Shown: positions 20,182 to 48,409 of the stretch, in pieces
How positions within the stretch are numbered: the stretch's first letter is position 1
Layout of the letters: each line of letters starts with the position of its first letter
Assembly (NCBI GenBank): GCA_048939625.1
Contig: JBHLPH010000004.1
Coordinates: 57,473 to 121,472 of the forward strand
Source: Promethearchaeota archaeon
GTDB taxonomy: Archaea > Asgardarchaeota > Hermodarchaeia > Hermodarchaeales > Hermodarchaeaceae
DNA length: 64,000 nucleotides
Direction: 5' to 3'
The notes under the pieces: generated by a model
The model's input: only the letters and a program-made list of their open reading frames with translations
Told to the model about the DNA's origin: nothing
The model's database searches: none
Made by a program: the position numbers and the translations under genes

Positions 20182-21867
20182 ATGAAAAAAACAATCACTC
20201 GTGCAAATAAGGTTCATGTAATTCTCACCCTAAAATCTAAAAGTGGAAAATCTCTGTTTAAAAAGAAAAAACTCCTTCATGAAGATTTCAAAGATTATGA
20301 TCCTCACCCTGATTCAATGAATGCAGTGATTACCTGGCTCAAAAAAGATGATTGCAAGATTACAGCAAAGGGTTATTTTAGCCTAGCTTTCACTGCGTCA
20401 AAATCCTTTGTCGATAAATACTTTGACGGAGGAAAAGCAATTCCCGTCGAGTTGAAAGAACATGTGGAAAAGAGTGTATTGTCACCAATTTGGAAACTGA
20501 GAAACGCAGAACCAACTCCCCCTAGACTTGATCCTGGTGAACTTTCAGTACCGTCCCCAATCGCTGAACTGGTAAATGCAGATAGTAAACATAGAGAAGG
20601 AATTGTTGGAAGAGGAGTGCATGTTGTTGTAGTTGATACAGGCTTTTGGACTCTTAATCACCCCCAATTTCATCCTTATTATAATGCCACACTTAAGGAT
20701 CAAGTGCGGAAGCAAATTGACGTTATACCTTTGAGAACCGAGTGGGACAAAGCAGAAGACTGGCTTTCTCATGGAACAGCTCTCTGTTCTACACTATTTG
20801 CGGTTGCGCCAGGGATTAGACTCACCATGATTAAGACAGCAAGTGTTTCAAGTGTTGTTCCAGCAACAGGAGAACCCATTGATAGCGAGGGGCCGTATAT
20901 TGTTGAGGGGATTTTGAAAGCAATTCAGTTGGAAGACCAGGCGGATATTCTGTTGGTTTGTGCAGGACCAAATGAGAAGGATGTGGATAGGAATGGAGAG
21001 GAGAGAAGAATAGTGGAGCTTGCTTTAATCACACTAATTAATCGAGGAGTTGTTGTTATCTTTCCATCTGGAAATTATGTATGGGAAACCGAGGATGGTC
21101 AAAGAATCGATGAAGGTGTTGTCGTGTGGCCTTCAACTCATCCAGATGTAATTTCTGTTGGTGGGGCTTCTCCCCCAGGAATAGCTGGTCCAGCTAATAA
21201 AGGGTGGTTTGCTTCACCTGTTGCATCGAGTGGTGAATCAGTGTTATACCCTCCTCGCCATGTCCCAGATATTTGCGGCTTGTGTGGAAATCTCATACGA
21301 GTAGCTGTACCAAATGGCCAAGGTGGCACACTTCAGGTTGGTGTAATGAAACCATTCATTGCAGTTCCAGTTCAGTATCAAAGTACTGATGATTTAATGC
21401 GGGTTCGTGATGCAACAGCCTTACCTCCTGTACTTGCTGACGGTTGGACTGTTAGTAACGGAACATCGCTTGCGGCGCCAATGGTTGCTGGCGTCGTTGC
21501 TTTAATGCTGCAAATCATTAATGACGCAGTTGGGTCATTACCGAGTACTTTTCGATCCAGTTATCGAACCCTTTTATCAAGATCTGATAAAAATAAATTA
21601 TCTTGGAACTCGGTTCGGGCATTCTTTCCAGGACTTATAAAGAAGATATTACAGAAGACTGCATATGATGTTAAAGAGGGAATAAGTGCTAATCTTGAAG
21701 CAGCTAGGCAAAATGAAGATCCTGCAACCGGTGTAGGACTCGTTGATGCTAAAAAGGCTTGTAATTTCCTTTCTGTAAATAGTATTTTGAATTTATTAAG
21801 GACTGATCCAACAATAATGCACCCCTATTTAGGAAGTTTTAGGCTTCCTGATGATTTCTTCCACTGA
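20182..21867 (+). CDS. S8 subtilisin-like serine protease with N-terminal prodomain, no obvious signal peptide
   Basis: VVVVDTG (Asp), HGT (His), SGN (oxyanion Asn), GTSLAAPMVAG (Ser). Confidence 0.92.
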   Translation: MKKTITRANKVHVILTLKSKSGKSLFKKKKLLHEDFKDYDPHPDSMNAVITWLKKDDCKITAKGYFSLAFTASKSFVDKYFDGGKAIPVELKEHVEKSVLSPIWKLRNAEPTPPRLDPGELSVPSPIAELVNADSKHREGIVGRGVHVVVVDTGFWTLNHPQFHPYYNATLKDQVRKQIDVIPLRTEWDKAEDWLSHGTALCSTLFAVAPGIRLTMIKTASVSSVVPATGEPIDSEGPYIVEGILKAIQLEDQADILLVCAGPNEKDVDRNGEERRIVELALITLINRGVVVIFPSGNYVWETEDGQRIDEGVVVWPSTHPDVISVGGASPPGIAGPANKGWFASPVASSGESVLYPPRHVPDICGLCGNLIRVAVPNGQGGTLQVGVMKPFIAVPVQYQSTDDLMRVRDATALPPVLADGWTVSNGTSLAAPMVAGVVALMLQIINDAVGSLPSTFRSSYRTLLSRSDKNKLSWNSVRAFFPGLIKKILQKTAYDVKEGISANLEAARQNEDPATGVGLVDAKKACNFLSVNSILNLLRTDPTIMHPYLGSFRLPDDFFH

Positions 21868-22095: not shown

Positions 22096-23067
22096 ATGGA
22101 CCTCATCGACAAACAAATTATTTTCGAGCTTCTGATTAGTTATCGCGCCTCGTACCAAGCTATCGCAGAAAAACTCAATTTATCTGTCAATGCTGTTAAA
22201 AAACGATTTGAGAAGTTAAAAAATGTTGGGATAATCCGCGGTGGAGTTTTAGTTCCAATGCCAGTGATGAAAGGAACTGAAGATTGGCTGGCATTATTAC
22301 GAATGGATGAAGCTACAGCTTCAGATGACAGTCTAGAAAAAATTGGGTCTCACGTACTAGTTCAATCGGGAAGCCTTCTGACAGATGGAAGCATCCTCTG
22401 TTTCGGGTTCTATGGCGGAGCACAAGATCTTCAGGAGATAGGGGCTTTTCTCCGCCAAGTTCAAGGTGTCAAATCTGTGGAATTTCATACAATTCTAGCA
22501 CCACAAGGAAAGAAGACTGATTTGGCGAAGAACGATGTAAAGGTACTCCGATGTCTTCGGGAAGCCCCCCGAATCCCGATTAGCAAAATTACTGAAAAAA
22601 CAGGTATAAATTCAAGACGAGTTCGGAATATTCTGCAAAAATTAATTGGAGAAAACGGAGTCGAACCGATCTATTATATTAATTGGAAATCTCAAGGAAA
22701 AACTCATCCGAATGATGTTAGTTTCTTAGTGAGAGTTCATTGGAACCTAAATGCGGGTGGTTATACTGCCTTTATGATTCAGATTCGACACAAGGAAGGT
22801 GTGGAAGAAAGGAAAAAAATTACTGATATTCTGACAGATAATTATTCTTTCGAGTTTTGGTATGCCTATGCTTCTGCATTTGAGCCCGTGATATTCTGTG
22901 TGTTCTTGGTTGAGCACATGAGGGATTCGATAGAAATTGTAAAAACAGTAGAGCAGATTCCTCAAGCAGTTGAGGTGTATCCGATTTTCGGGTATCCTAC
23001 GAAGGTTTTTCGTAGTCAGGTTGATGATTATTTTGAAGGAATTTTCGAGAATATTGATCAGTACTGA
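22096..23067 (+). CDS. Tandem (double) Lrp/AsnC-type transcriptional regulator, paralog 1
   Basis: N-terminal AsnC HTH (DKQII.EL...RASYQAIAEKLNLSVNAVKKR) and second HTH (DVKVLRCLREAPRIPISKI). Confidence 0.85.
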   Translation: MDLIDKQIIFELLISYRASYQAIAEKLNLSVNAVKKRFEKLKNVGIIRGGVLVPMPVMKGTEDWLALLRMDEATASDDSLEKIGSHVLVQSGSLLTDGSILCFGFYGGAQDLQEIGAFLRQVQGVKSVEFHTILAPQGKKTDLAKNDVKVLRCLREAPRIPISKITEKTGINSRRVRNILQKLIGENGVEPIYYINWKSQGKTHPNDVSFLVRVHWNLNAGGYTAFMIQIRHKEGVEERKKITDILTDNYSFEFWYAYASAFEPVIFCVFLVEHMRDSIEIVKTVEQIPQAVEVYPIFGYPTKVFRSQVDDYFEGIFENIDQY

Positions 23068-23253: not shown

Positions 23254-23397
23254 TCAGCGAATCATAAGCGGAAGTGCCTGTTCGAGACGTGGACCTGCTC
23301 GGGGATTGGTTCGACATCCAGCAAATAATCGCTCTGCACAGGTCATGCGAGCGACGTGAGCGTGATGATGAAGTTTCCGAGCGGTTTTCTTCTTCAT
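23254..23397 (-). CDS. Basic peptide U1 (47 aa), novel family
   Basis: MKKKTARKLHHHAHVARMTCAERLFAGCRTNPRAGPRLEQALPLMIR; GGAGGT SD; homologous to U2 and U3. Confidence 0.8.
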   Translation of the reverse strand: MKKKTARKLHHHAHVARMTCAERLFAGCRTNPRAGPRLEQALPLMIR

Positions 23398-23446: not shown

Positions 23447-23534
23447 TTAGATATGAATCGATGGGAGCCAATGAGTGCAAGAACAAGCAAAATGAGCAGT
23501 ATTAATGCCTCATTTTGCACAATGTAGTGTAAAG
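23447..23534 (-). promoter_or_regulatory. Shared promoter/operator, copy 1
   Basis: TCGATGGGAGC 23458, AGTGCAAGA 23474, TTTTGCAC-N6-GTGTAAAG 23513-23534. Confidence 0.75.
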
Positions 23535-23581
23535 TTCGAAAAATACTGCTTCAGAATATGAATAGAGGTATCTTGTAGTTG

Positions 23582-23926
23582 TTAGATCCAGCCACGGAAT
23601 TTGGCCAGAATCCACAGAATAGCAAAAGGAGCGATAACCATAAGTTCAATTTGTAAAACAATAATGAAATCCCCTACAGAGGTAGAACCATAGATACTAG
23701 AAGTGGCCACCCCACAGAAGAACGCATTATACCAAACGAAACACATATCAACTATTGTGAAAAGCGCGGCGAGTGTTCCACCCAGATCAAAAAGCCGACA
23801 CCCTTTATTCTTCAGGATACTGAAAATTTGATAAAGTCTTAAGCGAGAATCCTGTGCTTTTCGGGTCGCATTCTGTAAAGTAACAGGTTTGGAACCATTT
23901 GGTTTCTGATTATTAGGGAAAGCCAT
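23582..23926 (-). CDS. Small membrane protein U4 (114 aa, two C-terminal hydrophobic segments)
   Basis: MAFPNNQKP...; GGAG SD; start region identical over 14 nt to U2; shared promoter upstream (ORF track starts at 23983). Confidence 0.7.
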   Translation of the reverse strand: MAFPNNQKPNGSKPVTLQNATRKAQDSRLRLYQIFSILKNKGCRLFDLGGTLAALFTIVDMCFVWYNAFFCGVATSSIYGSTSVGDFIIVLQIELMVIAPFAILWILAKFRGWI

Positions 23927-24000
23927 TTTTGTTCTCCATCCAATTTCGTTGAATTCACCCGAAGACCCGTTCGGGCGTTTCATGCCATTAAAGGTTGATT

Positions 24001-24089
24001 TTACATATCAATCAATGGGAATTAAATCATGCAAAAAAATCGAAGCTACTTAAGGAAAAACTCCTTTTTTTGCGATAGGGGGTTCAAAA
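24001..24089 (-). promoter_or_regulatory. Shared promoter/operator, copy 4
   Basis: TCAATGGGAAT 24012, CATGCAAAA 24028, TTTTGCGA-N6-GTTCAAAA 24068-24089. Confidence 0.65.
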
Positions 24090-24300
24090 AAAGAATCTAT
24101 CTGCTATTAATTTCCATTTGATTAATCTAAGAGGTTCAAAAGTACTAACCATCTTCTTTTTGGAGCAGTTTAATAAAATGTGAATACTGCTTCTTCTTTA
24201 GGCAATTGCAGGAAAAAAAGTCGCTTATCTTGAATTTCAGAATCTAATGTGTTAAGGCTTATAAGGGATTAGAGAGGTTTAGCAGTCGGAGGGTTAAACC

Positions 24301-24429
24301 CTGTCATCAACGTGGTTAAACAATCCTTGGCTGATTGTTCAAGACCCCGGATTTCCCATAATGACGACTATCCTGATTCTCGTGATTATTATCTTAATCA
24401 TTGAAATCTATAAAGTCAGGAAGGATTAG
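24301..24429 (+). CDS. Putative single-TM leader peptide B (42 aa from CTG; internal ATG at 24361 gives 22 aa)
   Basis: (L)SSTWLNNPWLIVQDPGFPIMTTILILVIIILIIEIYKVRKD; GGAGGG 7 nt upstream; TATA-like CTTATAAG at 24258. Confidence 0.6.
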   Translation: MSSTWLNNPWLIVQDPGFPIMTTILILVIIILIIEIYKVRKD

Positions 24430-24471
24430 GTATTCGGGATTCTGATTCGAATTAGTCATATAGGGAACCAC

Positions 24472-24506
24472 GGGAGTTTTATCAACTCCCTCTCCCTCCT
24501 TTTTTT
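24472..24506 (+). terminator. Hairpin + anti-SD tract + T7 terminator/attenuator before the gingipain
   Basis: GGGAGTT/AACTCCC stem, TCTCCCTCC, TTTTTTT (24500-24506). Confidence 0.65.
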
Positions 24507-24643
24507 CAATAGGTTCGAGGTTTTTTCAAACTAAAATTGCCTTTGAATCCAGAGAAGCGAAGATAGTGAGTTTTCCCATATGAAAATAAATAGAATAAAG
24601 ATTACCAATATCAGGATTTGAATTTAGACCTTGAGGGAGAATC

Positions 24644-27600
24644 ATGAGTAGATTTCCTTTGGGCTTAAGTTACGTATTTATTATCATTTTAATTTGCCCT
24701 TCAATCCTAATGCAACCATATTCACCATTGCTTCTTGAAGACTATCCCTATAGTACTCCGAAAGACGCGGAATTTTGTACAGAACCACTAGCTTCCGCAC
24801 ATTTATCTACCTCTAAGCGAGCTTTGCCTATTCAGGGTGGTTCTTGGGTACAATTTCATTCTGAAGCAGAAATCGGGGGAGAGCCAGAGATAACACTTCT
24901 TTCGTCAGATACGATCCGATTAGTAGTCTTACTAGAGTGCCCAGGAATGTGGCGAGATGACATTATATTAAATCATACTGTGTATGACAGACTTGAAATC
25001 ATTTCAGCAGAGTCAACCGCCGATGTTGGTAATCCGAACATCCCTGTTCTGACAAAGATGCTAGAAGTTCCTTATGACATTGATGTTTCAGTCGAACTTC
25101 TCGATTCAGAATATCAGGATTTATCGGATTACCATATTGCACCTAGGCAAGAGTTAGTTTATCCTACTCCATCAATAACGTACCCAAGATTCTTCATTAA
25201 CACAACAGTCTATAACCAGAATTCGTTTTATCCAACCTCACTGACTTGGATTGAAGGAAGTCTAGCAGCGAATCCCATTGTAATCCGTGGCCATCGAATA
25301 ATCACATTGCACTTAGCTCCACTCCAATTTAACCCAGATAGACATATTTGTCGAGTATTTTCAAAGATCAAAGTGGCTGTACGATTTGCCCGACCAGCAG
25401 CAATTGAACCAATAAGTTCTCGGCTTCAGAGCTCGGCTTTTGAGGGAATATTAGAGAATTATCTTCTGAATTATCCTCATGGATTTTACAGCGGACTCTC
25501 AACATTACAGAATACTACTCCTTGGATTCCTCCGATTTGGACAATTCTCCCACCGTCAAAACAGATGCCCACGAGCGGATGCGAGTATCTTATTATTTCC
25601 CATGATGATTTTGTCGAGAAAGTTAGACCATTAGCAAACTGGAAGATTCAGAAAGGCATAACGACAAAACTCATTTCGATTACTGGGGTTTTTAATGAGT
25701 TAAACTGGGTAGTAACGTCTGATCCAGATACTATTAGGAGTGCAGTTTCAGAATACATTCAGTGGGCATACAATAGCTGGGATTTAGTACCAACTTATGC
25801 CCTCCTTGTTGGAGATGAAGCACATATTCCTCCACATTATATGACAATTCATCCACAGTATCTTACATTGAGTCCAACGGACTTAGGATACTTTCAGCTC
25901 GATGGACCCGATTATCTCCCGGAAATGCTGCATGGGCGACTTTCCGTTGACTCTGATACTCAAGCTGAAACCTTTGTCAATAAAATTCTTCAATACGAAC
26001 AGAATGGCGTAACTGATCCAACGGGTAATTTTTATAACAGAATCTGCGCTAGCGCATACTTCCAAGATAGAGATAATAATGGACAAGAAGATCCTGCATT
26101 TCGTCTAACTCAAACTGCTGAAAAGTTTCGAGAGTATGTAACCTCACGTTCGAATCCTTATGATGTGGACTATTTCTATGTTGCAGGAGCGTACAACTTG
26201 GACCCCTTTGCCATTACTCCCTCAACCTATGAAGATGGAACACCCCTTGATTCAAGTTTAGCAGGCCATGATTGGTTCCATCATTTTACACAAGCACAGA
26301 ATGTCATCGATACAATCAACCTTGGATCGTTTTTGCTATTCAATCTTGGCCATGGAGAATCGCGGAATTTTTACCGTCAATCGAATGGCACTTTTGGTCC
26401 ATTTGATGGTTGGCAGTATCCACCCTTTGTAACAGACCAGTTTCACCTGTTGACAAACGGAGACAAACTACCCGTAGTTCTGAGTTTAGATTGTAATACA
26501 GGCTGGTTTGATGAAGCCTACGATTATAGTCCAGCAAATTACGAATCCTTCTCCGAAGAGATTACCAGAAAGGCTGGCGGTGGTGCTGTTGCAGCACTTG
26601 GGGCTTCACGGCCCGTTCAGGCACCCGTGAGCGCGTTAATGCTGGAGGGAATTGCTGATGCAATTTGGGCTGATTATGATGGAAATATCGCCACAGGTGG
26701 TTTGAATAATTTGGGACAGATCATCCACTATAGCAAGATGCTAGTTATGGAACAATGGGGATATTTGGGTGAAGAATTGTGTTCTGTAAATACATTTGAA
26801 CTCTACCACCTTTTTGGAGATCCAGAGATGCCATTATGGACGCAAGAGCCTGAGGATCTGGAGGTTTATTATCCAACACATATTGGCATGGAGGGAGAGC
26901 AACGCTTTGTTGTCCAAGTGACTCGGAGCGGATTTCCTATTGGTTCAGCAAGAGTCTGTCTTCAAAAAGGCGGAGAGTTATATGCAGTGAATTTCACGGA
27001 TTCTAGAGGTTATGCGTATTTTTCAGTTAATCCCATAACAAGTGGATCTATGAATTTGACCGTGACAGCTAAGAACCATCTTCCATATACCACAGTAATT
27101 TTCGTTACCAGTGGTGGAGGAGTTCAGTTAAGTCGAGCCTCTGGGGCTGGAGAAACCACGATTACTATCACTGGAACAAAATTTACAAGTGCTAATATGG
27201 TCCATCTCTTCATAGGAAACCCATGGGAAGAAGAGGGAAGTGGTCAGGTACCTGTGGATGGGAGAGTTGAATTCACCTATACAATTCCAAGTGAACAAAC
27301 AGAACCACTGAATTTTTGGCTCCGTGAAATCCAAGTTATAAGTATTGATCCTCCGATTATTTTCACAGTCCGTGCCGGCGTTTCCTATTACTCACCGTAT
27401 TTTGAAGCTCCAGATTTGTATACCTATTGTCAATGGAATGAAGAAACATGGCATTTGAATCCTAAAGGATCATCTGCCAATGAGAATCCCTGTTGGGATA
27501 ATCCTTCGATAGAGGTGAAAGATGATCAGGGAAATGTAGTTACATCAGGAAACTTACAAATTGGTTCTATCTATACTATTCATGCTGATATACACAACGC

Positions 27601-28243
27601 AGGACCAATTCATGCAAATAACGTCAAAGTGTTCTTCAACTGGTCTAGATGGGGAATTGGCCAAGTGACTTGGCATGCGATAGGAAATGACACAATTGAT
27701 GTCCTGCCTTGGGGTCAGTCGATGGCTGTAATGGTCTTTGTGCCAACTGTTGAAGACATGATTTGTATTCGAGTAGCAGTATCACATCCTGAAGATAGCA
27801 ATCCTTACAATGATTGGGGTGTTGAAAACACCTTAGCACTCTTCACTCCGGACCGCATCGGCATCGAATTGCCAGTCTTCAACCCAACTTCCAGAGAAAG
27901 CCATATGTTTATCCAATTGACTCAAGATAACATATTAGGTGCTTTGTGGACAGCATCAGTTGATCATATTTCAGATTCACAACTAGGACCAAGTGAATCA
28001 ACTAATATCATAATCAGTTTCGTTATCCCAGACGATGTTAGAGAAGGTGATATGCACAATTTCACAATAAACGCCTTTATCGAACAATATATCACAGGGG
28101 GAGTCAGTATTTGTCTAACGAAAAGACCGCCTCAATTAGTGATACCATGGCACCTAATCCTCCCGCTAATTGTTTTAGTGATTATCAGTATTATCATCGT
28201 ATTCGTTTTTAAGAAGCGCTTTCGAGAAAGTGATGAAAATTAG
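24644..28243 (+). CDS. C25 (gingipain) family cysteine peptidase, secreted, C-terminally membrane-anchored
   Basis: Signal-like N-terminus; propeptide (G.P..P); EYLII, YALLVGD, GRL, LGHG (His), SLDCNTG (Cys), LFGDP; Ig/CARDB-like domains; TM + KKR. Confidence 0.9.
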   Translation: MSRFPLGLSYVFIIILICPSILMQPYSPLLLEDYPYSTPKDAEFCTEPLASAHLSTSKRALPIQGGSWVQFHSEAEIGGEPEITLLSSDTIRLVVLLECPGMWRDDIILNHTVYDRLEIISAESTADVGNPNIPVLTKMLEVPYDIDVSVELLDSEYQDLSDYHIAPRQELVYPTPSITYPRFFINTTVYNQNSFYPTSLTWIEGSLAANPIVIRGHRIITLHLAPLQFNPDRHICRVFSKIKVAVRFARPAAIEPISSRLQSSAFEGILENYLLNYPHGFYSGLSTLQNTTPWIPPIWTILPPSKQMPTSGCEYLIISHDDFVEKVRPLANWKIQKGITTKLISITGVFNELNWVVTSDPDTIRSAVSEYIQWAYNSWDLVPTYALLVGDEAHIPPHYMTIHPQYLTLSPTDLGYFQLDGPDYLPEMLHGRLSVDSDTQAETFVNKILQYEQNGVTDPTGNFYNRICASAYFQDRDNNGQEDPAFRLTQTAEKFREYVTSRSNPYDVDYFYVAGAYNLDPFAITPSTYEDGTPLDSSLAGHDWFHHFTQAQNVIDTINLGSFLLFNLGHGESRNFYRQSNGTFGPFDGWQYPPFVTDQFHLLTNGDKLPVVLSLDCNTGWFDEAYDYSPANYESFSEEITRKAGGGAVAALGASRPVQAPVSALMLEGIADAIWADYDGNIATGGLNNLGQIIHYSKMLVMEQWGYLGEELCSVNTFELYHLFGDPEMPLWTQEPEDLEVYYPTHIGMEGEQRFVVQVTRSGFPIGSARVCLQKGGELYAVNFTDSRGYAYFSVNPITSGSMNLTVTAKNHLPYTTVIFVTSGGGVQLSRASGAGETTITITGTKFTSANMVHLFIGNPWEEEGSGQVPVDGRVEFTYTIPSEQTEPLNFWLREIQVISIDPPIIFTVRAGVSYYSPYFEAPDLYTYCQWNEETWHLNPKGSSANENPCWDNPSIEVKDDQGNVVTSGNLQIGSIYTIHADIHNAGPIHANNVKVFFNWSRWGIGQVTWHAIGNDTIDVLPWGQSMAVMVFVPTVEDMICIRVAVSHPEDSNPYNDWGVENTLALFTPDRIGIELPVFNPTSRESHMFIQLTQDNILGALWTASVDHISDSQLGPSESTNIIISFVIPDDVREGDMHNFTINAFIEQYITGGVSICLTKRPPQLVIPWHLILPLIVLVIISIIIVFVFKKRFRESDEN

Positions 28244-28311
28244 GATTTTTCAATAAGTGGAAAGAAAACAAATGTGCCATACTCTATTTATAGTCGTGAA
28301 GACCACAGAGT

Positions 28312-28327
28312 GTGGATTCGGACCTTT
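28312..28327 (+). promoter_or_regulatory. 16-nt element GTGGATTCGGACCTTT upstream of Lrp paralog 2
   Basis: Identical copy at 29510-29525; both lie 25 nt after a TTTAT box. Confidence 0.65.
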
Positions 28328-28409
28328 AGGGCGTTCTACAAGCAGAATGGAGTAAATTAGTGATTTAAGTTCTCCATATGACCTCAACATATACCTTAAC
28401 GTGATTGTT

Positions 28410-29378
28410 ATGGATCTGGTTGACAAGAACATTGTGTTCGAGCTTTCCGTCAATTATCGTGCTTCATATCAGACGATTGCCAAGAAACTAAATCTTTCTG
28501 TGAATGCTGTCAAGAAACGTATTGAGAAACTAAAGGAGAGTGGAATAATTCGGGGAGGTTTATTACTTCCAATGAATGCAATGTTGGGGATGGAAGATTG
28601 GATAGCCATTTTGCATACTAAAAACCCCACCCCTTCAAGTAATTTTCTTGACACATTGGGAAAACATCCATTGATGACTGCCGCAAGTATTCTTACAGAT
28701 GGAAGTATTTTGTGCCATGGGAGTTACTCAGGAGCATATGGTCTTCGAGATATTGGATCGTTTTTACGGCAGATACCTGAAGTGGACTCTGTAGATTTTC
28801 ATACACTTCTCTCTGTGCCAGGGAAACGTTGTGAATTATCAACTGCTGACTTGAAAGTCCTGAGATGTCTCTACGAAGAGCCTCGAATTTCTATTATAGA
28901 TATTTCTAAAAAAACTGGCCTTAGTCCTCGCCGGATTCGAATGAGCATACACGAATTAATAGGTGAAAACGGCTCCGAACCGGCTCTATACTTGGAGTGG
29001 GAGCCGAGGGGTGGTTCTCGTCCTGAAGAGGTTAGTTTTAAGGTTTCAATTCACTGGGATTTGAATGCTGGTGGATATACGGCATTCATTATGATGATTC
29101 GACACGAAGAGGGGAGTGTGTCACAGTCTAAGATTGTTAGAATGTTAAAAGAACAGTATCCAATGGATTTTTGGTATGCATATGCCTCGGCGTTTGAGCC
29201 TGTGATTTTTTGTATTTTTGTCGTTGAACACTTACGAGACGCTACAAACATTGCAAATACGATTCGGAAAATCCCTGAAGCGATTACTGCAAATACGATT
29301 TTTGGTTATCCAACTAAACGATATCGAAGTCCTATTGATGACTATTTTGAAGAACTTTTCAAGCAGATCGACGACTAA
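28410..29378 (+). CDS. Tandem Lrp/AsnC-type regulator, paralog 2
   Basis: Same two-HTH architecture; shared LTDGSILC, LNAGG, FWYAYASAFEPVIF. Confidence 0.87.
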   Translation: MDLVDKNIVFELSVNYRASYQTIAKKLNLSVNAVKKRIEKLKESGIIRGGLLLPMNAMLGMEDWIAILHTKNPTPSSNFLDTLGKHPLMTAASILTDGSILCHGSYSGAYGLRDIGSFLRQIPEVDSVDFHTLLSVPGKRCELSTADLKVLRCLYEEPRISIIDISKKTGLSPRRIRMSIHELIGENGSEPALYLEWEPRGGSRPEEVSFKVSIHWDLNAGGYTAFIMMIRHEEGSVSQSKIVRMLKEQYPMDFWYAYASAFEPVIFCIFVVEHLRDATNIANTIRKIPEAITANTIFGYPTKRYRSPIDDYFEELFKQIDD

Positions 29379-29509
29379 TTAGGGTTTTCACAACCTAATC
29401 GCTTTCCCTTCATTTTGCTTTACGTCTAATTTGATACTGATGTCATCAGTAGTTAGGGGGTCCTTTTAGGTGAGCCGAACAAATTTTATGCTTTAAAATA
29501 GTGGTGTAA

Positions 29510-29525
29510 GTGGATTCGGACCTTT
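29510..29525 (+). promoter_or_regulatory. 16-nt element GTGGATTCGGACCTTT upstream of Lrp paralog 3
   Basis: Identical to 28312-28327. Confidence 0.65.
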
Positions 29526-29610
29526 GAGACAGCATTGGGTGGTTTTGTTAAGACAATACAGTCTTCAAGCTACTATCCTGCTAGCTGCAAAAAGGCATTA
29601 AGTGGTGGCA

Positions 29611-30582
29611 ATGGACGCCGTGGACAAGAACATCATTTTCGAGCTATCGACAAACTATCGTGCTTCATATCAGGCTATTGCTAAGAAAATGGATCTTTCA
29701 GTGAATGCTGTTAAGAAGCGAATTGAGAAACTCAAAGAAAGTGGAGTAATTCGGGGTGGGTTATTACTTCCTATGAGGGCAATGTTGGAGATGGATGATT
29801 GGGTTGCCTTATTACGCACTGAAGATCCAATTCCTTCTGATCAGTTTCTTGATGTTATTGGGGCACATCGGTTAGTGGGATCTGCGAGTATTCTTACGGA
29901 TGGTAGTATTTTGTGTTTTGGGTGGTACCCTGGCTCTTCAGGGCTTGAGGAAATTGGTACATTCTTGCGTTCAACTCCTGGTGTTGAGTCGGTGGAATTT
30001 CATACGATTCTTGCGGATCCTGGGAAGCGCTGCGAGTTGTCTGTATCTGACGTGAAGGTGCTTCGATGTTTGCATAAAGAGCCACGGATGTCAATTAGTG
30101 ATATTTCTAATGAAACGCGCCTTACGCCCCGCCGTATTCGGAAAATCATTGATGCGTTAATTGGTGAAAATGGTTCAGAGTCCAATATCTATTTGAATCA
30201 CCCGTCCAGAGGGGGGAAGCGACCAGAAGAGGTATGCTTTCAACTAAGTTTGCGTTGGAATTTGAATGCTGGGGGACATACCGCATTTGTAATTATAATT
30301 CGCCATGAAGAGGGGGCCCAACCCCGTTCAAAGATTGTGGATATTCTCAAGGAGAACTTTCCGGTGAAATTTTGGTATGCGTATGCATCAGCCTTTGAGC
30401 CGGTGATTTTTTCTGTGTTCGTGGTTGAGCATATGCGCGAAGCCAGTGAAATCATTGAGACAATTCGTAAGACGCCTGAAGCGATTTCAGCGAATGCAAT
30501 CTATGGATATCCTTCACGAATATTTCACAGTCCCATAGATGATTACTTCGAAAAGCTCTTCAAACGACTAGAAAGAGACTAA
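29611..30582 (+). CDS. Tandem Lrp/AsnC-type regulator, paralog 3
   Basis: Close paralog of 28410-29378. Confidence 0.87.
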   Translation: MDAVDKNIIFELSTNYRASYQAIAKKMDLSVNAVKKRIEKLKESGVIRGGLLLPMRAMLEMDDWVALLRTEDPIPSDQFLDVIGAHRLVGSASILTDGSILCFGWYPGSSGLEEIGTFLRSTPGVESVEFHTILADPGKRCELSVSDVKVLRCLHKEPRMSISDISNETRLTPRRIRKIIDALIGENGSESNIYLNHPSRGGKRPEEVCFQLSLRWNLNAGGHTAFVIIIRHEEGAQPRSKIVDILKENFPVKFWYAYASAFEPVIFSVFVVEHMREASEIIETIRKTPEAISANAIYGYPSRIFHSPIDDYFEKLFKRLERD

Positions 30583-30616
30583 AGCAGTGAAAGTTTTGAC
30601 ATAAGGAAAAGGTCTG

Positions 30617-31393
30617 TTAGAGGTCCCAATCATATTTTGTGAAGAAGAAAGGATAACAGTCATCAGGTTTGAGTTCTTCAAGAGTTTCAGCAGGTAATAA
30701 CCAGATATCAGTCTGAGAAGTGTAAGCAGCTGTTGTGACTTCGAGAACTGGGATTTCATGAATTGGATCATCGAGGGACTTGTTGAGTTTAAGCTCACCG
30801 GGTCCGATTTCAATTGGCCCGTAATTGATTTTGTTAAGTAAACGGAGTAGTCGAGGATGGTTATCGACGGAAATGCCATCTATACCGGGGAAAGCTTTGA
30901 GCAGAAACCAAGGAGTTGCACTAAAGGCTTCTGGGAAGGGAGTCTGCATGATTGCTTTAATTTCGATTATAGGGATACCATGGCGGGTACACACACCATG
31001 TACAGCATTTCCTTTGCGTGTGAGCGTGATTGAATCTGCGATTTTTTTGGGAAATCCATATAATTCACGTCCTGCGGCCATAGCGAGATCATTATCAACG
31101 GGCATGGCGAGGCAATAGCTTCCCTGTTCATTATTATATTGGACTTGCACGGAGAGTGCGGCTTCGTTGTAGGGAGCAATGAAGTTAGGTTCGAGAAATT
31201 CCGCGACATATGCTGTTCCTAGCGCTTCGGGGGAGGGTTCCAGTGGAGGGGGAATTATGCGTTTAATGACTTGGAGGTCAGTTTTGAAAATTACCATTAA
31301 CATGTTGACCTTACCGAGGAGGAAGCCCTGTGCAAATTTCTTGCTTCGCTTTTTGAGGTCGTCTCGGGAGTGGACTAAACTCATTATAGACAC
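30617..31393 (-). CDS. Acetoacetate decarboxylase (ADC) family protein
   Basis: IPPPLEP, PYNEAAL, AAGRELYGFPKK with the Schiff-base Lys. Confidence 0.88.
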   Translation of the reverse strand: MSIMSLVHSRDDLKKRSKKFAQGFLLGKVNMLMVIFKTDLQVIKRIIPPPLEPSPEALGTAYVAEFLEPNFIAPYNEAALSVQVQYNNEQGSYCLAMPVDNDLAMAAGRELYGFPKKIADSITLTRKGNAVHGVCTRHGIPIIEIKAIMQTPFPEAFSATPWFLLKAFPGIDGISVDNHPRLLRLLNKINYGPIEIGPGELKLNKSLDDPIHEIPVLEVTTAAYTSQTDIWLLPAETLEELKPDDCYPFFFTKYDWDL

Positions 31394-31404
31394 CGGTTTG
31401 TATT

Positions 31405-32169
31405 CTAAGCTGGCTTTGTATTAAAGCGCTTAGTGTGTCGGTGTCGAAAAACAAAAGTAATTCCGAAAAGGATGACTAGCAATAAAACTCCAAGTCCTAG
31501 CCAAAACAGTGTTGTGTAGTTTTGTTCTTCGAGAGAAAGAATTCCTAAGGTATGGAAGTTGCTGGCTGTTAGTTCACGTGTGACGCGATATGTGTAGATT
31601 GCGTGTTGAGAGGCGAGGAGCTCGTAGGTATACTTGAGAAGAATTCCCTCCGTGTAGTGGAAGTACCAGTTTTCGCTACATTGTTGAAAATCGTCATCAA
31701 TCGAAAACCATGCAACTGATTGGACTCGCCAACAGAGAAAGGTTCCGAATTCAAGAGAGATGTAGCTTGATGTGAGAGGGTAATTCCCTGTATACGGGGA
31801 GAAAGCCACAGAATGCCCATGGTGCCATCTGGAAGTATTGACCCAAAGTGGAGGTTGGAGAGGTCTTTCAAGCAAAGTTCCATTTAATAATATGATTCGC
31901 CATGTTGAACTATTGAGGAACATTTCCCCCTGCAATATATCCTCGTTAGTGGACGAGATATTGATGAGGAAAAGCGAGTTACGTTGCACTGATGTTGCCG
32001 ATTGGATTGTGAACTGTTCATCCCATTCACCCTGCAGGTCATCAGTTACATGGTAGTTGAGAAAAAGCCCAGTGGGTAAAGATGCAAGCCTAGTCGGGAT
32101 AGAAATTAAGAATGACAGTAATATGACGAATAACACAAACCGAATTCGTTTCTTTCTTAAAATCCTCAT
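31405..32169 (-). CDS. Secreted, C-terminally membrane-anchored hypothetical protein
   Basis: MRILRKKR + hydrophobic signal; C-terminal TM + basic tail (ORF track starts at 32205). Confidence 0.75.
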   Translation of the reverse strand: MRILRKKRIRFVLFVILLSFLISIPTRLASLPTGLFLNYHVTDDLQGEWDEQFTIQSATSVQRNSLFLINISSTNEDILQGEMFLNSSTWRIILLNGTLLERPLQPPLWVNTSRWHHGHSVAFSPYTGNYPLTSSYISLEFGTFLCWRVQSVAWFSIDDDFQQCSENWYFHYTEGILLKYTYELLASQHAIYTYRVTRELTASNFHTLGILSLEEQNYTTLFWLGLGVLLLVILFGITFVFRHRHTKRFNTKPA

Positions 32170-32185
32170 CGTGAACCCTTCAGTG

Positions 32186-33163
32186 TCAAAGATTGGCATG
32201 GGCAATCATTTCATCAATCATTGATTCGCGTAATCCAACATATTTTCGGAGAGGAAAGCTGACCCAAATCTCAACCTTCGAGATATTAGGTGCTTTTCGT
32301 ATCACGGGAAGGATTTTTTCGGATTCACGAATGTGGTTTACAATGAAGACACAATAGATAATCGGTTCAGTGGCAGCAACAAAGGAAAACCAGAATTCGA
32401 AGGGGAAGTGGCTTTTGAAGTATTGGACAACTCCTTCAGGAGATCCTTTGCCTTCTTCCCAGTTAGTTCGAACAACAAACGCATTACCGCCTCCTGCATT
32501 AAGGTCCCAGTAGATGCGAAAATGTAAGGCAGCTTTGGATTGGCTAATTTCCGGTTTGTATTCTTTATCAACAAGAGTTTCGATGGGAGTTCCAACCTTG
32601 CCATGAAAGTCTTGGATGACGCTGCGAATGCGTCGAGGTGTTAAACCAGTTTGCTCTGAAATTTGTGAGATAGGCATCCGTGCATCCTCTCGTAGAGATC
32701 GGAGGACTTTCAAATGTCCGTCTGTCATAGGAATTTTTTGACCACGATCTGCAATGAGAGTGTGAATTTCAACGTTCGCGACGCCTGGCAGTTGGCGAAG
32801 AAATCCACCGAGTTCAGATAGACCTTGTGCTCCGATATATTCTGCGAAGACGAGGATGGATCCATCAGAAAGATAACCAGCACTGAAAACGGATGGATGT
32901 GCACCTATGCGGTCTAGAAATTCTGGACTGAAATGGGTGTCGCTAAGAGTGATTCGGGCAAGGAACCATTCAGCGTCCATCATGGCTAGACTGAGATACA
33001 CATAATATCGTTGGATAACTCCTTCTTCTTCCAGTTTCAATATTCTTTTCTTCACAGCGTTCACTGTAAGGTCTAGCCGAGTTGCGATTGTTTGATAAGT
33101 GACTCGACAGTTGGTTGCGAGTTCGAGAAGAATGCTTTTGTCTACAATATCCAATGGAGGCAC
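32186..33163 (-). CDS. Tandem Lrp/AsnC-type regulator, paralog 4 (more diverged)
   Basis: LDIVDKSILLEL..NCRVTYQ, LSDGSIL, WDLNAGG, FWFSFVAATEP. Confidence 0.85.
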   Translation of the reverse strand: MPPLDIVDKSILLELATNCRVTYQTIATRLDLTVNAVKKRILKLEEEGVIQRYYVYLSLAMMDAEWFLARITLSDTHFSPEFLDRIGAHPSVFSAGYLSDGSILVFAEYIGAQGLSELGGFLRQLPGVANVEIHTLIADRGQKIPMTDGHLKVLRSLREDARMPISQISEQTGLTPRRIRSVIQDFHGKVGTPIETLVDKEYKPEISQSKAALHFRIYWDLNAGGGNAFVVRTNWEEGKGSPEGVVQYFKSHFPFEFWFSFVAATEPIIYCVFIVNHIRESEKILPVIRKAPNISKVEIWVSFPLRKYVGLRESMIDEMIAHANL

Positions 33164-33324
33164 CTTATCTTGGGGGTTGACCTGAATTGGCTGTTCTCGG
33201 ATATATTTACGAGGAATGGCGAAGCTAGTCTTTGGATTCTCCGTTGTCAGGAATTCAGCGAGATATAATTCGTAAGCACTCCGGTTTAATCCTTTTGAAA
33301 TGTAGCATGCCTTTTGAATGCCCT

Positions 33325-33528
33325 AATAAAAAATAAATAAAAAAGCCGGGTCTTCAGGGTATCCTTCCCCTCCATTTCGGCACTTCCCGGTCCGTGCGCA
33401 TGGGTGGCAATGGACCATTTTGGACAACGGATTCGGAGTTTTCGTCCGGTTACCGAGAAGACCCGGCTAAGGTCAGCGTCCAAGGTCCGTGTCACTGGTG
33501 TGTCAGTGTCGATCCCTAGTAATCATGA
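33325..33528 (-). other. Structured 3' RNA and U-rich terminator of peptide unit U2
   Basis: Perfect 12-bp inverted repeat AGCCGGGTCTTC (33344-33355)/GAAGACCCGGCT (33457-33468) enclosing ~100 nt; A-rich tract 33325-33344. Confidence 0.7.
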
Positions 33529-33651
33529 TTAGCGTCGTGAAGTTACGACAGCAAAGGTGATTCGGTCTCGTGGAGTGCCTTTGGGGTTTTTCGCACCGGT
33601 AACAGCGCGTTCTGCAAGGGCCATTTTGGCAATTTTCTTTTTCGGAGCCAT
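33529..33651 (-). CDS. Basic peptide U2 (40 aa), novel family
   Basis: MAPKKKIAKMALAERAVTGAKNPKGTPRDRITFAVVTSRR; GGTGA SD; not in ORF track. Confidence 0.82.
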   Translation of the reverse strand: MAPKKKIAKMALAERAVTGAKNPKGTPRDRITFAVVTSRR

Positions 33652-33700
33652 TTTTGTTCACCGTCCCGCCGATGCGAGACAATGATACCTAACCCGAAAA

Positions 33701-33788
33701 TTGCATATTATTCGATGGGAGCTTGTCAGTGCAAAAATCCGACAAAAAGAGAGAGAGTGTGCCAACTTTTGCACTAAGTGGTGCAAAA
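33701..33788 (-). promoter_or_regulatory. Shared promoter/operator, copy 2
   Basis: TCGATGGGAGC 33712, AGTGCAAAA 33728, perfect TTTTGCAC-N6-GTGCAAAA 33767-33788. Confidence 0.8.
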
Positions 33789-33825
33789 ATCAGGAACGCA
33801 CCCTGAAAAGGACTTGGGTGGGAGT

Positions 33826-34009
33826 AAACCGGGCCTACGAAAGCTCCCGACCACAAGAACCACGAAATTAGATCACCCGTTGCTGAATCGCTACTGCGCC
33901 GATTCCCCAGCAACAGGAAGAGGAACAAGTGGCGGTTGTGTAGGCCCGATTGACGTGGCTGCAAGGGGTTTTTGGTGATCGTTTCTTCACCATAGGGATT
34001 CCTCACAGC
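33826..34009 (-). other. Structured 3' RNA of peptide unit U3
   Basis: CGGGCCTAC (33830-33838)/GTAGGCCCG (33940-33948) closing stem; inner GTTGCTG/CAGCAAC and GAATCG/CGATTC; second stem 33957-33966/34001-34010. Confidence 0.7.
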
Positions 34010-34150
34010 CTAGCGTCGGCTAAGGACCAGCATGACTGCATATCGAGTCCGAGGTTTTGCTACCGGATGGGGGTTACGGCAGCCGGCTACGGCACGTTCA
34101 GTCGCCGACATATCTGCTAGTTTCTTATGTTTATGTTCGGATTTGGCCAT
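34010..34150 (-). CDS. Basic peptide U3 (46 aa), novel family
   Basis: MAKSEHKHKKLADMSATERAVAGCRNPHPVAKPRTRYAVMLVLSRR; GGAGGG SD; not in ORF track. Confidence 0.82.
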   Translation of the reverse strand: MAKSEHKHKKLADMSATERAVAGCRNPHPVAKPRTRYAVMLVLSRR

Positions 34151-34222
34151 CTCAAATCCCTCCAATTGTGTGTCACCAGGATCCCTGTTGGGAATCCCAG
34201 AGCAAATACGAATCGGCGTCCG

Positions 34223-34310
34223 TTTGATAAGAATCGATGGGAGCAGCCGAGTTCAAAATCCCGCAATTTCCACTTTTGGATTCAGAAATCTTGAACTTCG
34301 CAATGCAAAA
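34223..34310 (-). promoter_or_regulatory. Shared promoter/operator, copy 3
   Basis: TCGATGGGAGC 34234, AGTTCAAAA 34250, TCTTGAAC-N6-ATGCAAAA 34289-34310. Confidence 0.75.
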
Positions 34311-34522
34311 CCGAGTAAGAGGATTTGCCTTTTTGCGAATTGTTGAACTCTCAAGTGTAAAATTCCGTTCTTCGAGGGATTTTTGATGTGTTAGACCCGA
34401 GAGCATTTTAGCCAAGGAGATGTATTTCTAACAGTGAAACGTCGTTAATATAGTAGTGAATGGAAAGCCCTTTTCTAACGAATTGGTTTGTCTGGGAAAA
34501 GAGAGTTGGAGTTGATGGCTGT

Positions 34523-34960
34523 ATGAATCCGTTACATGTGTTTCCTTTCAAGTATATGCAGATTATTGTCGCTTTGCTAGCTGAGGGTGAGGTAGACCTT
34601 TCGGAGATTCGGTCCTCCACTGGCATGTGTAGCTTTGATTCCACAGAAGTATCGGATATGCTAGCGTACTTGACAGGATTTGGTCGAGTTGAAGCCCAAG
34701 ATGATGGTTGGGTTATACATAAAACGGAAACAAAAGCGGTCTATGAGCGATTTCGCAAGGCATTCCTCGATGATGCTGTGGCGATCCTCACGAATTTATC
34801 AACCAAGGCCAAACCGATTGAACAGTTACAACAGAAAACTGGTCTTAGTGCAGAGAAAATAAATCTGTATTTGCCGTTCCTTGCAGACATCACTCGATTG
34901 GGTGTTATTGGACGGTGTTCAACCGAGCACCCAACCATTTGGTGTGTCCAGTCAGAGTAG
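34523..34960 (+). CDS. Hypothetical protein, probably tandem winged-helix
   Basis: Two helix-turn-helix-like repeats (LSEIRSSTG..., IEQLQQKTGLS...), each ending G.V/I...W; ORF track starts at 34460. Confidence 0.6.
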   Translation: MNPLHVFPFKYMQIIVALLAEGEVDLSEIRSSTGMCSFDSTEVSDMLAYLTGFGRVEAQDDGWVIHKTETKAVYERFRKAFLDDAVAILTNLSTKAKPIEQLQQKTGLSAEKINLYLPFLADITRLGVIGRCSTEHPTIWCVQSE

Positions 34961-46258: not shown

Positions 46259-48409
46259 TTATTGTCCTAGAAAACGAGCCGCGAATTGAGTGAATTGATC
46301 CATTGTGTCCTGGGTTATGCTTGGTCTTGTAGATTTAATGGCTTCGTGGAAATGTGCCATATTAACGCGTTTAGCTTCTAGATTGGTGCGTAGAACGGCA
46401 AGGACCGCCTTGCGACAGACGTTTTGGATATCAGCCCCTGAGAAACCCTCTGTGACTGAAGCGAGTTGTTCGACCTTTACATCCTCAGCGAGTGGCATAT
46501 TTCGAGTATGGACTTCAAAGATAGCTTGCCGCGCTGCTTGGTTGGGAGGTGGTGTGAAGATGAAAATATCGAACCGCCCAGGACGTAGGAGAGCGGTATC
46601 AATCATATCAGGACGATTGGTGGCTGCAAGCACGACTACACTTTCGAGTTGTTCCATTCCGTCCATTTCTACCAAGAGCTGGTTGACAATGCGTTCACTT
46701 ACACGGCTATCAAATCCAGATCCACGGCGGGGTGCAATATTATCGAGTTCATCAATAAAAAGAACTGAGGGAGCGGCTTGTCTAGCGCGACGAAAGATTT
46801 CTGCGATGATTTTTTCAGATTCGCCAACCCATTTGCTCATTACTTCGGCGCCTCGAATGCTGATGAAATTCGCTTGACTTTCAGTAGCCACTGCTTTTGC
46901 CAGTAGTGTTTTACCAGTGCCTGGAGGACCAAAGAGTAAGACACCTTTTGGAGGAGTGATATTGAATCGTTGAAAGATATCAGGGCGACTGATAGGTAAT
47001 TCAACTGCTTCTCGTATAGCCTGCTTGGCGGATTCCATTCCGCCCACGTCTTCCCAACGGACCATAGGAACCTCGATAGCAATTTCTCGAAGAGCAGAGG
47101 GTTCAACTATTTGACGAGCCGTTTTGAAATCATCAGCGCTAACTACAATTTGATTTATCATATTTGGAGGAACTTGCATCTGCGATTCTTCAATTTGGGG
47201 TAACACACGGCGGAGGGCACCTAGAGCCGCTTCCTTCACCAGAAAGGCTAAATCGGAACCGACGAAGCCATGAGTTCCTTGGGCGATGCTGTGGAGGTCA
47301 ACTGAGTCATCGAGGGGGACACCCCGTGTGTGGACTCGAAGAATATCATAGCGACCGTGTTGATCAGGAACGGAAATATGAATTTCTCGATCAAACCGTC
47401 CTGGGCGGCGCAGTGCTGGGTCAACTGCGTCTAATCGGTTCGTTGCAGCGAGGACGAAGACTTGATCCCGGTCTTGGAGACCATCCATGAGGGTGAGTAG
47501 TTGGGCTACAATCCGGCTTTCCATGCCTCCCGATTCTCGTCGGCTAGCAATGGCATCGATTTCGTCAATAAAGATTATCGCAGGTTTATTTTTTTCAGCT
47601 TCTTGAAAGGCATCTCGAAGAAATTTCTCGGATTCACCATAATATTGACTCACTATTTCGGGACCATTGATTGCCCGAAAGAAAGCTTCACTTTCAGTAG
47701 CCACCGTTTTGGCGAGAAGTGTTTTGCCACAGCCGGGGGGTCCGTGCAGAAGTACCCCTCGAGGTGGTTGTATTTTCAATCGTGCAAAAAGCTCAGGGTG
47801 GCGTATTGGTAGTTCGACGATTTCTCTGATTCGGGAAATTGCGTCATCTAAACCGCCGACATCATCGTAGGTTGCGGTAGCAATCGGAGTGACTTCATCT
47901 GGAGCTTCCTTCTGCAATATGAGGTCAGTATTGGTATTGACGATCACATTTCCAGCTGGAACTGTTTTGGCAACATAAAACTTAGCTTCTGCCAAGGCGA
48001 ATGCGGCTCGTCCGACTGCAATAATAATATCTTTCCTAACTGGTTTATCAAGAAGATTGCTTTTCAATAGAGAAGTGGCTAGTTCCTGACGATATTCGAT
48101 TTCTTCCCCCTTGAGTGGAGTCAATATGACGCTCCGCGCTGGTTGACCCTCGGTCTTTTGCACTGTTACAACGTCTCCAATCCGAACACCCGCATTCAGT
48201 CGAGTTAGACCATCCATTTTTATGACATTCTGGTTCTGCAGGGTGACATCGCGGATTGCCTTAGCGCACACACTTTTCTTTCCAACAATCTCAAGGAGAG
48301 AGTCATCTGCGAGTTGGAGTTGGTCAAACACGTTAGGATCTAAGCGGACCGTGAACCGTCCAACATCAACCGCACTAGCTTCTGCCACACGTACTGATGC
48401 TACACTCAT
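46259..48409 (-). CDS. cdc48: Cdc48/p97/VAT AAA+ ATPase
   Basis: N-domain (DVGR, MDGLTRLNAG); two AAA modules (GPPGCGKT/DEID, GPPGTGKT/DELD) with RPGRFD; ORF track starts at 48562. Confidence 0.96.
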   Translation of the reverse strand: MSVASVRVAEASAVDVGRFTVRLDPNVFDQLQLADDSLLEIVGKKSVCAKAIRDVTLQNQNVIKMDGLTRLNAGVRIGDVVTVQKTEGQPARSVILTPLKGEEIEYRQELATSLLKSNLLDKPVRKDIIIAVGRAAFALAEAKFYVAKTVPAGNVIVNTNTDLILQKEAPDEVTPIATATYDDVGGLDDAISRIREIVELPIRHPELFARLKIQPPRGVLLHGPPGCGKTLLAKTVATESEAFFRAINGPEIVSQYYGESEKFLRDAFQEAEKNKPAIIFIDEIDAIASRRESGGMESRIVAQLLTLMDGLQDRDQVFVLAATNRLDAVDPALRRPGRFDREIHISVPDQHGRYDILRVHTRGVPLDDSVDLHSIAQGTHGFVGSDLAFLVKEAALGALRRVLPQIEESQMQVPPNMINQIVVSADDFKTARQIVEPSALREIAIEVPMVRWEDVGGMESAKQAIREAVELPISRPDIFQRFNITPPKGVLLFGPPGTGKTLLAKAVATESQANFISIRGAEVMSKWVGESEKIIAEIFRRARQAAPSVLFIDELDNIAPRRGSGFDSRVSERIVNQLLVEMDGMEQLESVVVLAATNRPDMIDTALLRPGRFDIFIFTPPPNQAARQAIFEVHTRNMPLAEDVKVEQLASVTEGFSGADIQNVCRKAVLAVLRTNLEAKRVNMAHFHEAIKSTRPSITQDTMDQFTQFAARFLGQ

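Follow-up and report, generated by a model that had tools for sequence, protein, structure and literature searches.

Archaeal activators of the Lrp type occupy, as dimers, a site located a few bp upstream of the B recognition element (BRE) at a constrained position, with phased accessory sites further upstream, and act through the basal factors (PMC2995911). These accessory sites were reported two or three helical turns apart (PMC2995911). In the case of Ss-LrpB, the box is TTGCAA-AAT/ATT-TTGCAA, with a 3-bp A/T centre (PMC2715240). Here we describe a promoter-operator cassette found upstream of micro-genes in a 64,000-nt window (the whole stretch of DNA that was analysed, positions 57473-121472 of contig C53) of an archaeal genome. 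Like the promoters controlled by Ptr2 (Methanocaldococcus jannaschii, fdxA/rb2), LysM (lysW) and Ss-LrpB (porDAB), it displays a palindromic site at a constrained position just upstream of the BRE/TATA and a regulator gene beside the targets, and a further upstream site lies in helical phase, though at a wider spacing; a regulator of the Lrp type and an activator-dependent core promoter would be further common points (PMC2995911). The regulon is real and probably belongs to the ordinary Lrp operator-promoter type; it has an unusual geometry and does not form a new category.

Asgard archaea are the closest prokaryotic relatives of eukaryotes and, to our knowledge, almost nothing is known of their gene regulation; a literature search found nothing on Lrp operators or promoter classes in these organisms. 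Judging from its sequence, the scanned assembly (2.31 Mb in 83 contigs, 44.6% GC, 87.6% complete) belongs to an uncultured Asgard archaeon of the Hermodarchaeia type, the named relatives of its regulators being found in Hermodarchaeota/Hermodarchaeia, Promethearchaeota, Thorarchaeota and Odinarchaeota assemblies. A whole-genome search recovered one TBP and six TFB paralogs. Because of these factors and of the Asgard relatives, the cassette was read against the archaeal BRE/TATA promoter, a frame that an earlier reading of the window, made from sequence alone (hereafter the sequence-only reading), had rightly adopted. A sigma-70 promoter (TTGCAC as -35, a 17-bp spacer and an AT-rich -10 hexamer) was ruled out on the same grounds, and a scan for such promoters gave no match at the cassettes. 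Two TFB genes, other than the one discussed below, adjoin each other on contig C9 (129888-131689). The genome also encodes an Ssb-like OB-fold protein with an RGG tail, which likewise spoke against the sigma-70 promoter.

One architecture was common to all four cassette regions of the window when they were aligned on the minus strand, i.e. in the direction of the downstream genes (g1 to g4, described below):

Cassette 1 (gene g1), 23450-23534, minus strand: TATA-like octamer 23450-23457, box 23458-23468, N6, proximal half-site 23475-23482, distal palindrome 23513-23534; 54.3 bits.
Cassette 2 (gene g4), 24004-24089, minus strand: TATA-like octamer 24004-24011, box variant TCAATGGGAAT 24012-24022, half-site 24029-24036, imperfect distal palindrome 24068-24089; 42.7 bits.
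Cassette 3 (gene g2), 33704-33788, minus strand: TATA-like octamer 33704-33711, box 33712-33722, half-site 33729-33736, perfect palindrome 33767-33788; 51.3 bits.
Cassette 4 (gene g3), 34226-34310, minus strand: TATA-like octamer 34226-34233, box 34234-34244, half-site 34251-34258, imperfect distal palindrome 34289-34310; 43.1 bits.

Read 5' to 3' on the minus strand, the distal element is a 22-bp palindrome, TTTTGCAC-N6-GTGCAAAA, followed by about 28 unconserved nt. The proximal element consists of TTGCAC (the left half-site of the distal palindrome), an unconserved N6 and an invariant box, GCTCCCnTYGA, which runs into the BRE position and abuts a weak TATA-like octamer (consensus WTnWTAT(G); variants TTGATATG, TTCATATC, ATAATATG or TTCTTATC). 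Compared with the tRNA promoters of the host genome, the cassette core is non-canonical, with a poor BRE and a weak TATA: it carries CCATCGA and then the TATA-like octamer where the tRNA promoters, some 30-40 nt upstream of the gene, carry cGAAAg followed by TTTTAAA. The leader before the ATG contains a Shine-Dalgarno-like site of the GGAGG or GGTGA type. Most of these positions had been read correctly from the letters. The exact 11-mer TCGATGGGAGC was indeed present at 23458, 33712 and 34234, with no other copy in the window (three exact copies, for a chance expectation of about 0.03 per given 11-mer in 128 kb, both strands), as were the variant box at 24012, the palindromes starting at 23513, 24068, 33767 (a perfect 8-N6-8) and 34289, and the distances of 61, 86, 61 and 84 nt from box start to ATG (boxes at 23458, 24012, 33712 and 34234). 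The GTGCAAAA-like half-site was likewise found in all four, yet it starts at +17 from the start of the box (23475, 24029, 33729 and 34251) and not at +16.

A 42-column matrix was built from the sites and run over the whole assembly. It returned exactly six places, at 43-54 bits, while the next best match reached 16 bits and no intermediates occurred. The two additional sites are located on contig C61, where they are oriented away from each other and flank a regulator gene (R5, see below). The signature is that of a genuine conserved regulon, as had been proposed, though one of six members, some of them not paralogous, instead of four genes. Strict matches to the box plus TATA numbered five in the genome and all five were cassettes (none in the control), the sixth cassette having the variant box; box and TATA were always accompanied by a TTGCAC half-site 6 nt upstream. 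The palindrome searched alone gave 381 loose matches in the genome, versus 266 in the reversed control, and no further regulon members; the few near-perfect extra palindromes all lay inside apparent coding sequence. A search for the same layout with any letters yielded 13 matches, versus 13 in its control.

Conservation was surveyed by searching 41 genomes for the pattern TTGMAY-N8-TCCCNTYGAWTNNTAT, the comparison set comprising 14 other species of the genus, 4 sister-genus genomes and 22 genomes of other families. The cassette occurred in 11 of the 14 other species of the genus. The same search recovered it from none of the 4 sister-genus genomes and none of the 22 genomes of other families, and the reversed pattern had no match in the 41 genomes. 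Relaxed scoring added copies that differ by one or two changes; typically these form tandem pairs spaced by about 520 bp, as g3 and g2 do here. An information profile was drawn from 26 distinct sites in 12 species, in which the columns forced by the search pattern are invariant by construction. The distal palindrome, which lies outside the pattern, was present at 26 of the 26 sites with 1-2 bits per column, and the unsearched GC before TCCC reached 1.6-1.8 bits. Overall, motif columns held 1.5-2 bits, against 0-0.4 bits for the N6 spacers and the 28-nt interval; TTGCAC stood 18 nt upstream of the TATA-like octamer at all 26 sites, a spacing set by the search pattern. Such a combination of near-invariant motifs and drifting spacers indicates selection on predicted protein-contact positions, not neutral residue of duplication. 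In the sequence-only reading, a mere duplication residue would have shown spacers as conserved as the motifs; they were far less so. A hybrid cassette was encountered in one genome (L057, G006:C7, upstream of the peptide gene 46520-46636): it keeps the distal palindrome, TTTTTGCAC-N6-GTGCA, and the GAATTGATAT core, has another sequence in place of the GCTCCC box and is located 1.5 kb from a tandem-Lrp gene.

The departures from characterised Lrp promoters concern the geometry. The cassette operator is an 8-N6-8 site (22 bp) with an unconserved centre (0-0.4 bits), whereas those of Ptr2, LysM and Ss-LrpB measure 13-15 bp and have an A/T centre; the palindrome of about 13-17 bp with an A/T-rich centre that is expected of an Lrp operator was not found at the cassette site. 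A core site a few bp upstream of the BRE at a constrained position was found, though the search pattern sets that spacing. The half-site TTGCAC matches the TTGCAA of the likewise palindromic Ss-LrpB box at 5 of 6 positions (PMC2715240), but the half-sites are 6 bp apart here instead of 3, and the DNA-reading heads would need about 3 bp more separation. From one operator to the other, the left halves are separated by 52 bp at 19 of the genus sites and by 53 bp at the other 7, which places the second site in phase at five helical turns, centre to centre, in contrast to two or three turns in the Ptr2, LysM and Ss-LrpB systems. The proximal site also differs from theirs in being a half palindrome joined to an invariant, non-palindromic box, and the candidate readers in being tandem-fused. 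The Ss-LrpB-type activator layout suggested in the sequence-only reading thus held as far as it fits the published Lrp activators (PMC2995911); it did not in dimension, since the Ss-LrpB 15-mer is narrower than the site (6-N6-6, or 8-N6-8 when the T/A tracts are included) and five turns exceed two to three.

Candidate readers are encoded beside the cassettes:

R1, 22096-23067, plus strand: tandem Lrp (HTH-RAM-HTH-RAM) paralog, convergent with g1.
R2, 28401-29378, plus strand: tandem Lrp paralog.
R3, 29602-30582, plus strand: tandem Lrp paralog.
R4, 32186-33163, minus strand: tandem Lrp paralog with its own TATA upstream.

R1 to R4 are 323-326 aa long and contain two AsnC-type helix-turn-helix (HTH) motifs each (Pfam HTH_AsnC/HTH_24). 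R5, the fifth, is located on C61 between its two cassettes, and about ten tandem Lrps occur in the genome. Four Lrp paralogs had been counted before; four Lrp-type proteins are present in the window, but they are tandem double-Lrp proteins and members of this larger set. R1 to R5 display the AsnC-type HTH followed by a RAM domain (beta-alpha-beta-beta-alpha-beta) that defines Lrp/AsnC (FFRP) proteins, and depart from the norm in that two such modules are fused in one chain. The family profile matched solved LrpA, PH1519/FL11, AsnC and Lrp with E values of 1e-16 to 1e-10 over residues 1-130. The model of R4 (predicted local distance difference test, pLDDT, 93) showed the HTH-RAM-HTH-RAM order, and its N-terminal half matched solved Lrp/AsnC regulators at E of about 1e-16. 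The closest NCBIfam model was that of the activator LysM. As a whole chain, the tandem regulator model was structurally best matched by the siroheme decarboxylase NirDL (PDB 4ch7, TM 0.57), the only solved fused double Lrp-like fold. The resemblance is one of fold alone: identity was 12% and the NCBIfam AhbA/AhbB scores were 15-27 bits for cut-offs of 125-140, and an AhbA/B-NirDL identity was rejected. The occurrence of about ten paralogs per genome, together with the Lrp-type HTH, argues for DNA-binding regulators rather than enzymes.

An association was observed between cassettes and tandem-Lrp genes. In the host genome, none of the six cassettes is farther than about 1.1 kb from such a gene; three separate loci are involved, and the ten genes with margins of about 1.1 kb cover some 1.4% of the genome. 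Among the 18 cassettes of other species with enough flanking contig to judge, 13 were within 2.5 kb of a tandem-Lrp gene and 15 within 6 kb; these counts are not independent, the loci being syntenic. R5 is flanked by cassettes of gene families B and C (see below) in five species, the palindrome of the C cassette lying about 80 bp upstream of the R5 start. As this layout is typical of autoregulated divergent pairs, it suggests autoregulation of R5. A separate element was noted at R2 and R3. Their genes have canonical TATA boxes (TTTATAG, TTTAAAATA) and, some 20-25 nt further downstream, the 16-mer GTGGATTCGGACCTTT in common (plus strand, 28312-28327 and 29510-29525), close to where transcription of each is expected to start.

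A second candidate reader is encoded next to cassette 4:

p166, 34460-34960, plus strand: called product of 145 aa, a weakly ArsR-like winged-helix protein, divergent from cassette 4.

p166 occurred only in this genus and displays a winged-helix-type secondary structure; its predicted structure (pLDDT 55) was too poor for a fold search. The gene is divergent from the tandem peptide cassettes in about 7 of 10 genomes. Four genomes with cassettes lack it and two that have none encode it (no cassette was found near p166 in G005 and G008), a distribution that fits the cassette less well.

In the reading that we favour, at a probability of roughly 0.55, the cassette is a pair of activating operators of the Lrp type set on a non-canonical core promoter, and tandem Lrp paralogs recognise it. 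Each cassette would be the composite archaeal promoter of a monocistronic micro-gene, with transcription expected to start about 23 nt past the TATA-like octamer and to produce 5' leaders of about 30-65 nt. The tandem Lrps encoded nearby would occupy both operators on one face of the DNA, and the one at the proximal site would help TBP and TFB onto a core promoter presumably poor by itself, as in the case of Ptr2, LysM and Ss-LrpB; all six genes would thereby be switched in concert. We infer which protein binds, that it activates rather than represses, and where transcription starts. Several observations weigh against this proposal. Half-sites separated by an unconserved N6 and operators five turns apart are unlike characterised Lrp sites. 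The proximal site is asymmetric, and its invariant box could belong to a TFB paralog or to p166. The N-terminal recognition helix of R1 to R4, SVNAVKKR, is the consensus of an Asgard-wide family (that of R5 differs), so that no specific paralog is tied to TTGCAC. Finally, two species have a family-C cassette without a tandem-Lrp neighbour, and some genomes in which no cassette was found encode tandem Lrps as well.

The same two operators might serve repression, with a tandem Lrp or p166 looping or wrapping the 52-bp interval and occluding the BRE/TATA so that the micro-genes stay silent in the absence of a signal. The BRE position is indeed overlapped by the proximal site and box, two helically phased sites would be suitable for a loop or a wrap, both activation and repression are known from Lrp proteins (PMC2995911), and the divergent p166 gene is conserved next to the tandem peptide cassettes. 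Yet the core promoter is poor, as expected of activator-dependent promoters, repressor sites in archaea usually overlap the TATA or the start site or lie beyond them (PMC2995911), and p166 is absent from some cassette genomes and present without cassettes in others; we regard repression as unlikely. The box itself invites another explanation, also raised in the sequence-only reading, namely a promoter class in which one of the six TFB paralogs recognises the box at the BRE position with the odd TATA, TTGCAC being accessory or meant for a separate factor. In haloarchaea, promoters specific to TFB/TBP paralogs (e.g. hsp5, PMC2396416) likewise go with several TFBs and carry a distinctive sequence in place of the usual BRE. 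In the present genome six TFBs accompany a single TBP, one TFB gene directly adjoins a tandem-Lrp paralog (G000 contig C45:38039-40008), and the box, exactly at the BRE position, is the most invariant part of the cassette. Unlike in the haloarchaeal promoters, however, it is inseparable from an Lrp-like half-site: box plus TATA never occurred without the half-site 6 nt upstream, a variant BRE plus TATA independent of the operators was not encountered, and a TFB class would therefore serve just six promoters. Moreover, its 11 nt exceed the 6-7 nt of a BRE, and TFB multiplicity (5-8 copies) is equal in the sister genus, which lacks the cassette. This explanation appears quite improbable to us.

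Still less probable, in our opinion, is a more elaborate form of the activating scheme, an activator-specified Asgard promoter class in which the two unlike heads of a tandem, pseudo-dimeric Lrp would read the asymmetric proximal site, one TTGCAC and the other the GCTCCC/ATCGA box, the regulator thereby standing in for a BRE, and in which the products of the controlled genes (basic peptides, and small proteins of the membrane or secreted), which have a C25 protease gene as a neighbour, would form a self-contained peptide-signalling circuit feeding back on the RAM domains. As for neutral residue of a gene-plus-promoter duplication, or a mobile promoter-bearing repeat, the paralogy of the g1-g3 peptides and the tandem arrangement of g2 and g3 speak for it; but the motifs are nearly invariant over the 26 sites while the spacers are not conserved, the cassette also precedes three unrelated gene families, and no flanking repeat structure was seen. 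We consider it very improbable.

The cassette offers a genus-conserved cis-element defined to the single base, with six targets and few candidate readers (R1-R5, p166 or a TFB paralog), and together with these readers it makes up a regulator-and-site pair that is directly testable without culturing the organism. Half-sites separated by N6, five-turn phasing and a box on the BRE position would extend the view of how Lrp-type factors address TBP and TFB. The cassette further singles out the 40-47-aa peptides, together with the remaining micro-genes, as a putative co-regulated functional unit.

The cassette precedes four unrelated gene families, A to D, of which A and D are represented in the window:

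g1, 23254-23397, minus strand: 47-aa basic micro-protein (..CAERLFAGCRTNP..), divergent member of family A, no Pfam family.
g4, 23582-23926, minus strand: 114-aa membrane protein (family D), unrelated to the peptides; an alternative in-frame ATG at 23983 gives 133 aa.
g2, 33529-33651, minus strand: 40-aa basic peptide, family A.
g3, 34010-34150, minus strand: 46-aa basic peptide of family A, which forms a tandem with g2 here and in other species.

Family A (g1, g2 and g3) is composed of basic peptides of 40-47 aa with the motif ..(A/T)ER.(V/A).G(A/C)(K/R)NP... Nine other species of the genus have orthologues of g2 (70-88% identity), and cassettes stood upstream of them in the loci examined. 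Family B is an 80-aa protein with a signal or transmembrane segment and family C a soluble protein of 87 aa; the class yielded 7 family-C genes, each of them with the cassette. No target protein had a match in Pfam, and a protein atlas gave no usable match for the two queries submitted, the family-C protein and peptide g3. In the sister genus, family A is found behind a different conserved control region (L052, L053 and L055, in genomes G015, G018 and G017, respectively), made of TAGTCAC-N5-GTGACCAC, then GCGACC and GTGAGCC repeats at 13-nt steps and a canonical TTATATA. The gene family is therefore older than the cassette, and the control letters changed between the genera.

About 60-190 nt past its stop codon, the g2 unit closes with a 12-bp stem and a long T-run behind it; g2 is therefore monocistronic. 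The structured element concerned is about 125 nt long, lies after the g2 stop (33345-33470, minus strand; closing stem AGCCGGGTCTTC ... GAAGACCCGGCT) and is probably a terminator plus a 3' RNA structure; no Rfam family matched it, nor any other part of the window. An open reading frame (ORF) of 69 aa at 33286-33495 was rejected as a member of a g2 operon, since it overlaps this element and is probably spurious. At g4, the in-frame upstream ATG (23981-23983, 133-aa form) practically coincides with the transcription start that the TATA-like octamer predicts, and g4 could for that reason be translated from a leaderless mRNA.

The island that harbours the peptides and regulators also includes a 1199-aa gingipain-type C25 peptidase (24644-28243) and a 561-aa ORF (20182-21867). 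R4 is followed by a 266-aa membrane protein (31405-32205) and a gene of the acetoacetate-decarboxylase family. In at least five species, the gene for the 266-aa protein accompanies the peptide loci as a conserved neighbour.

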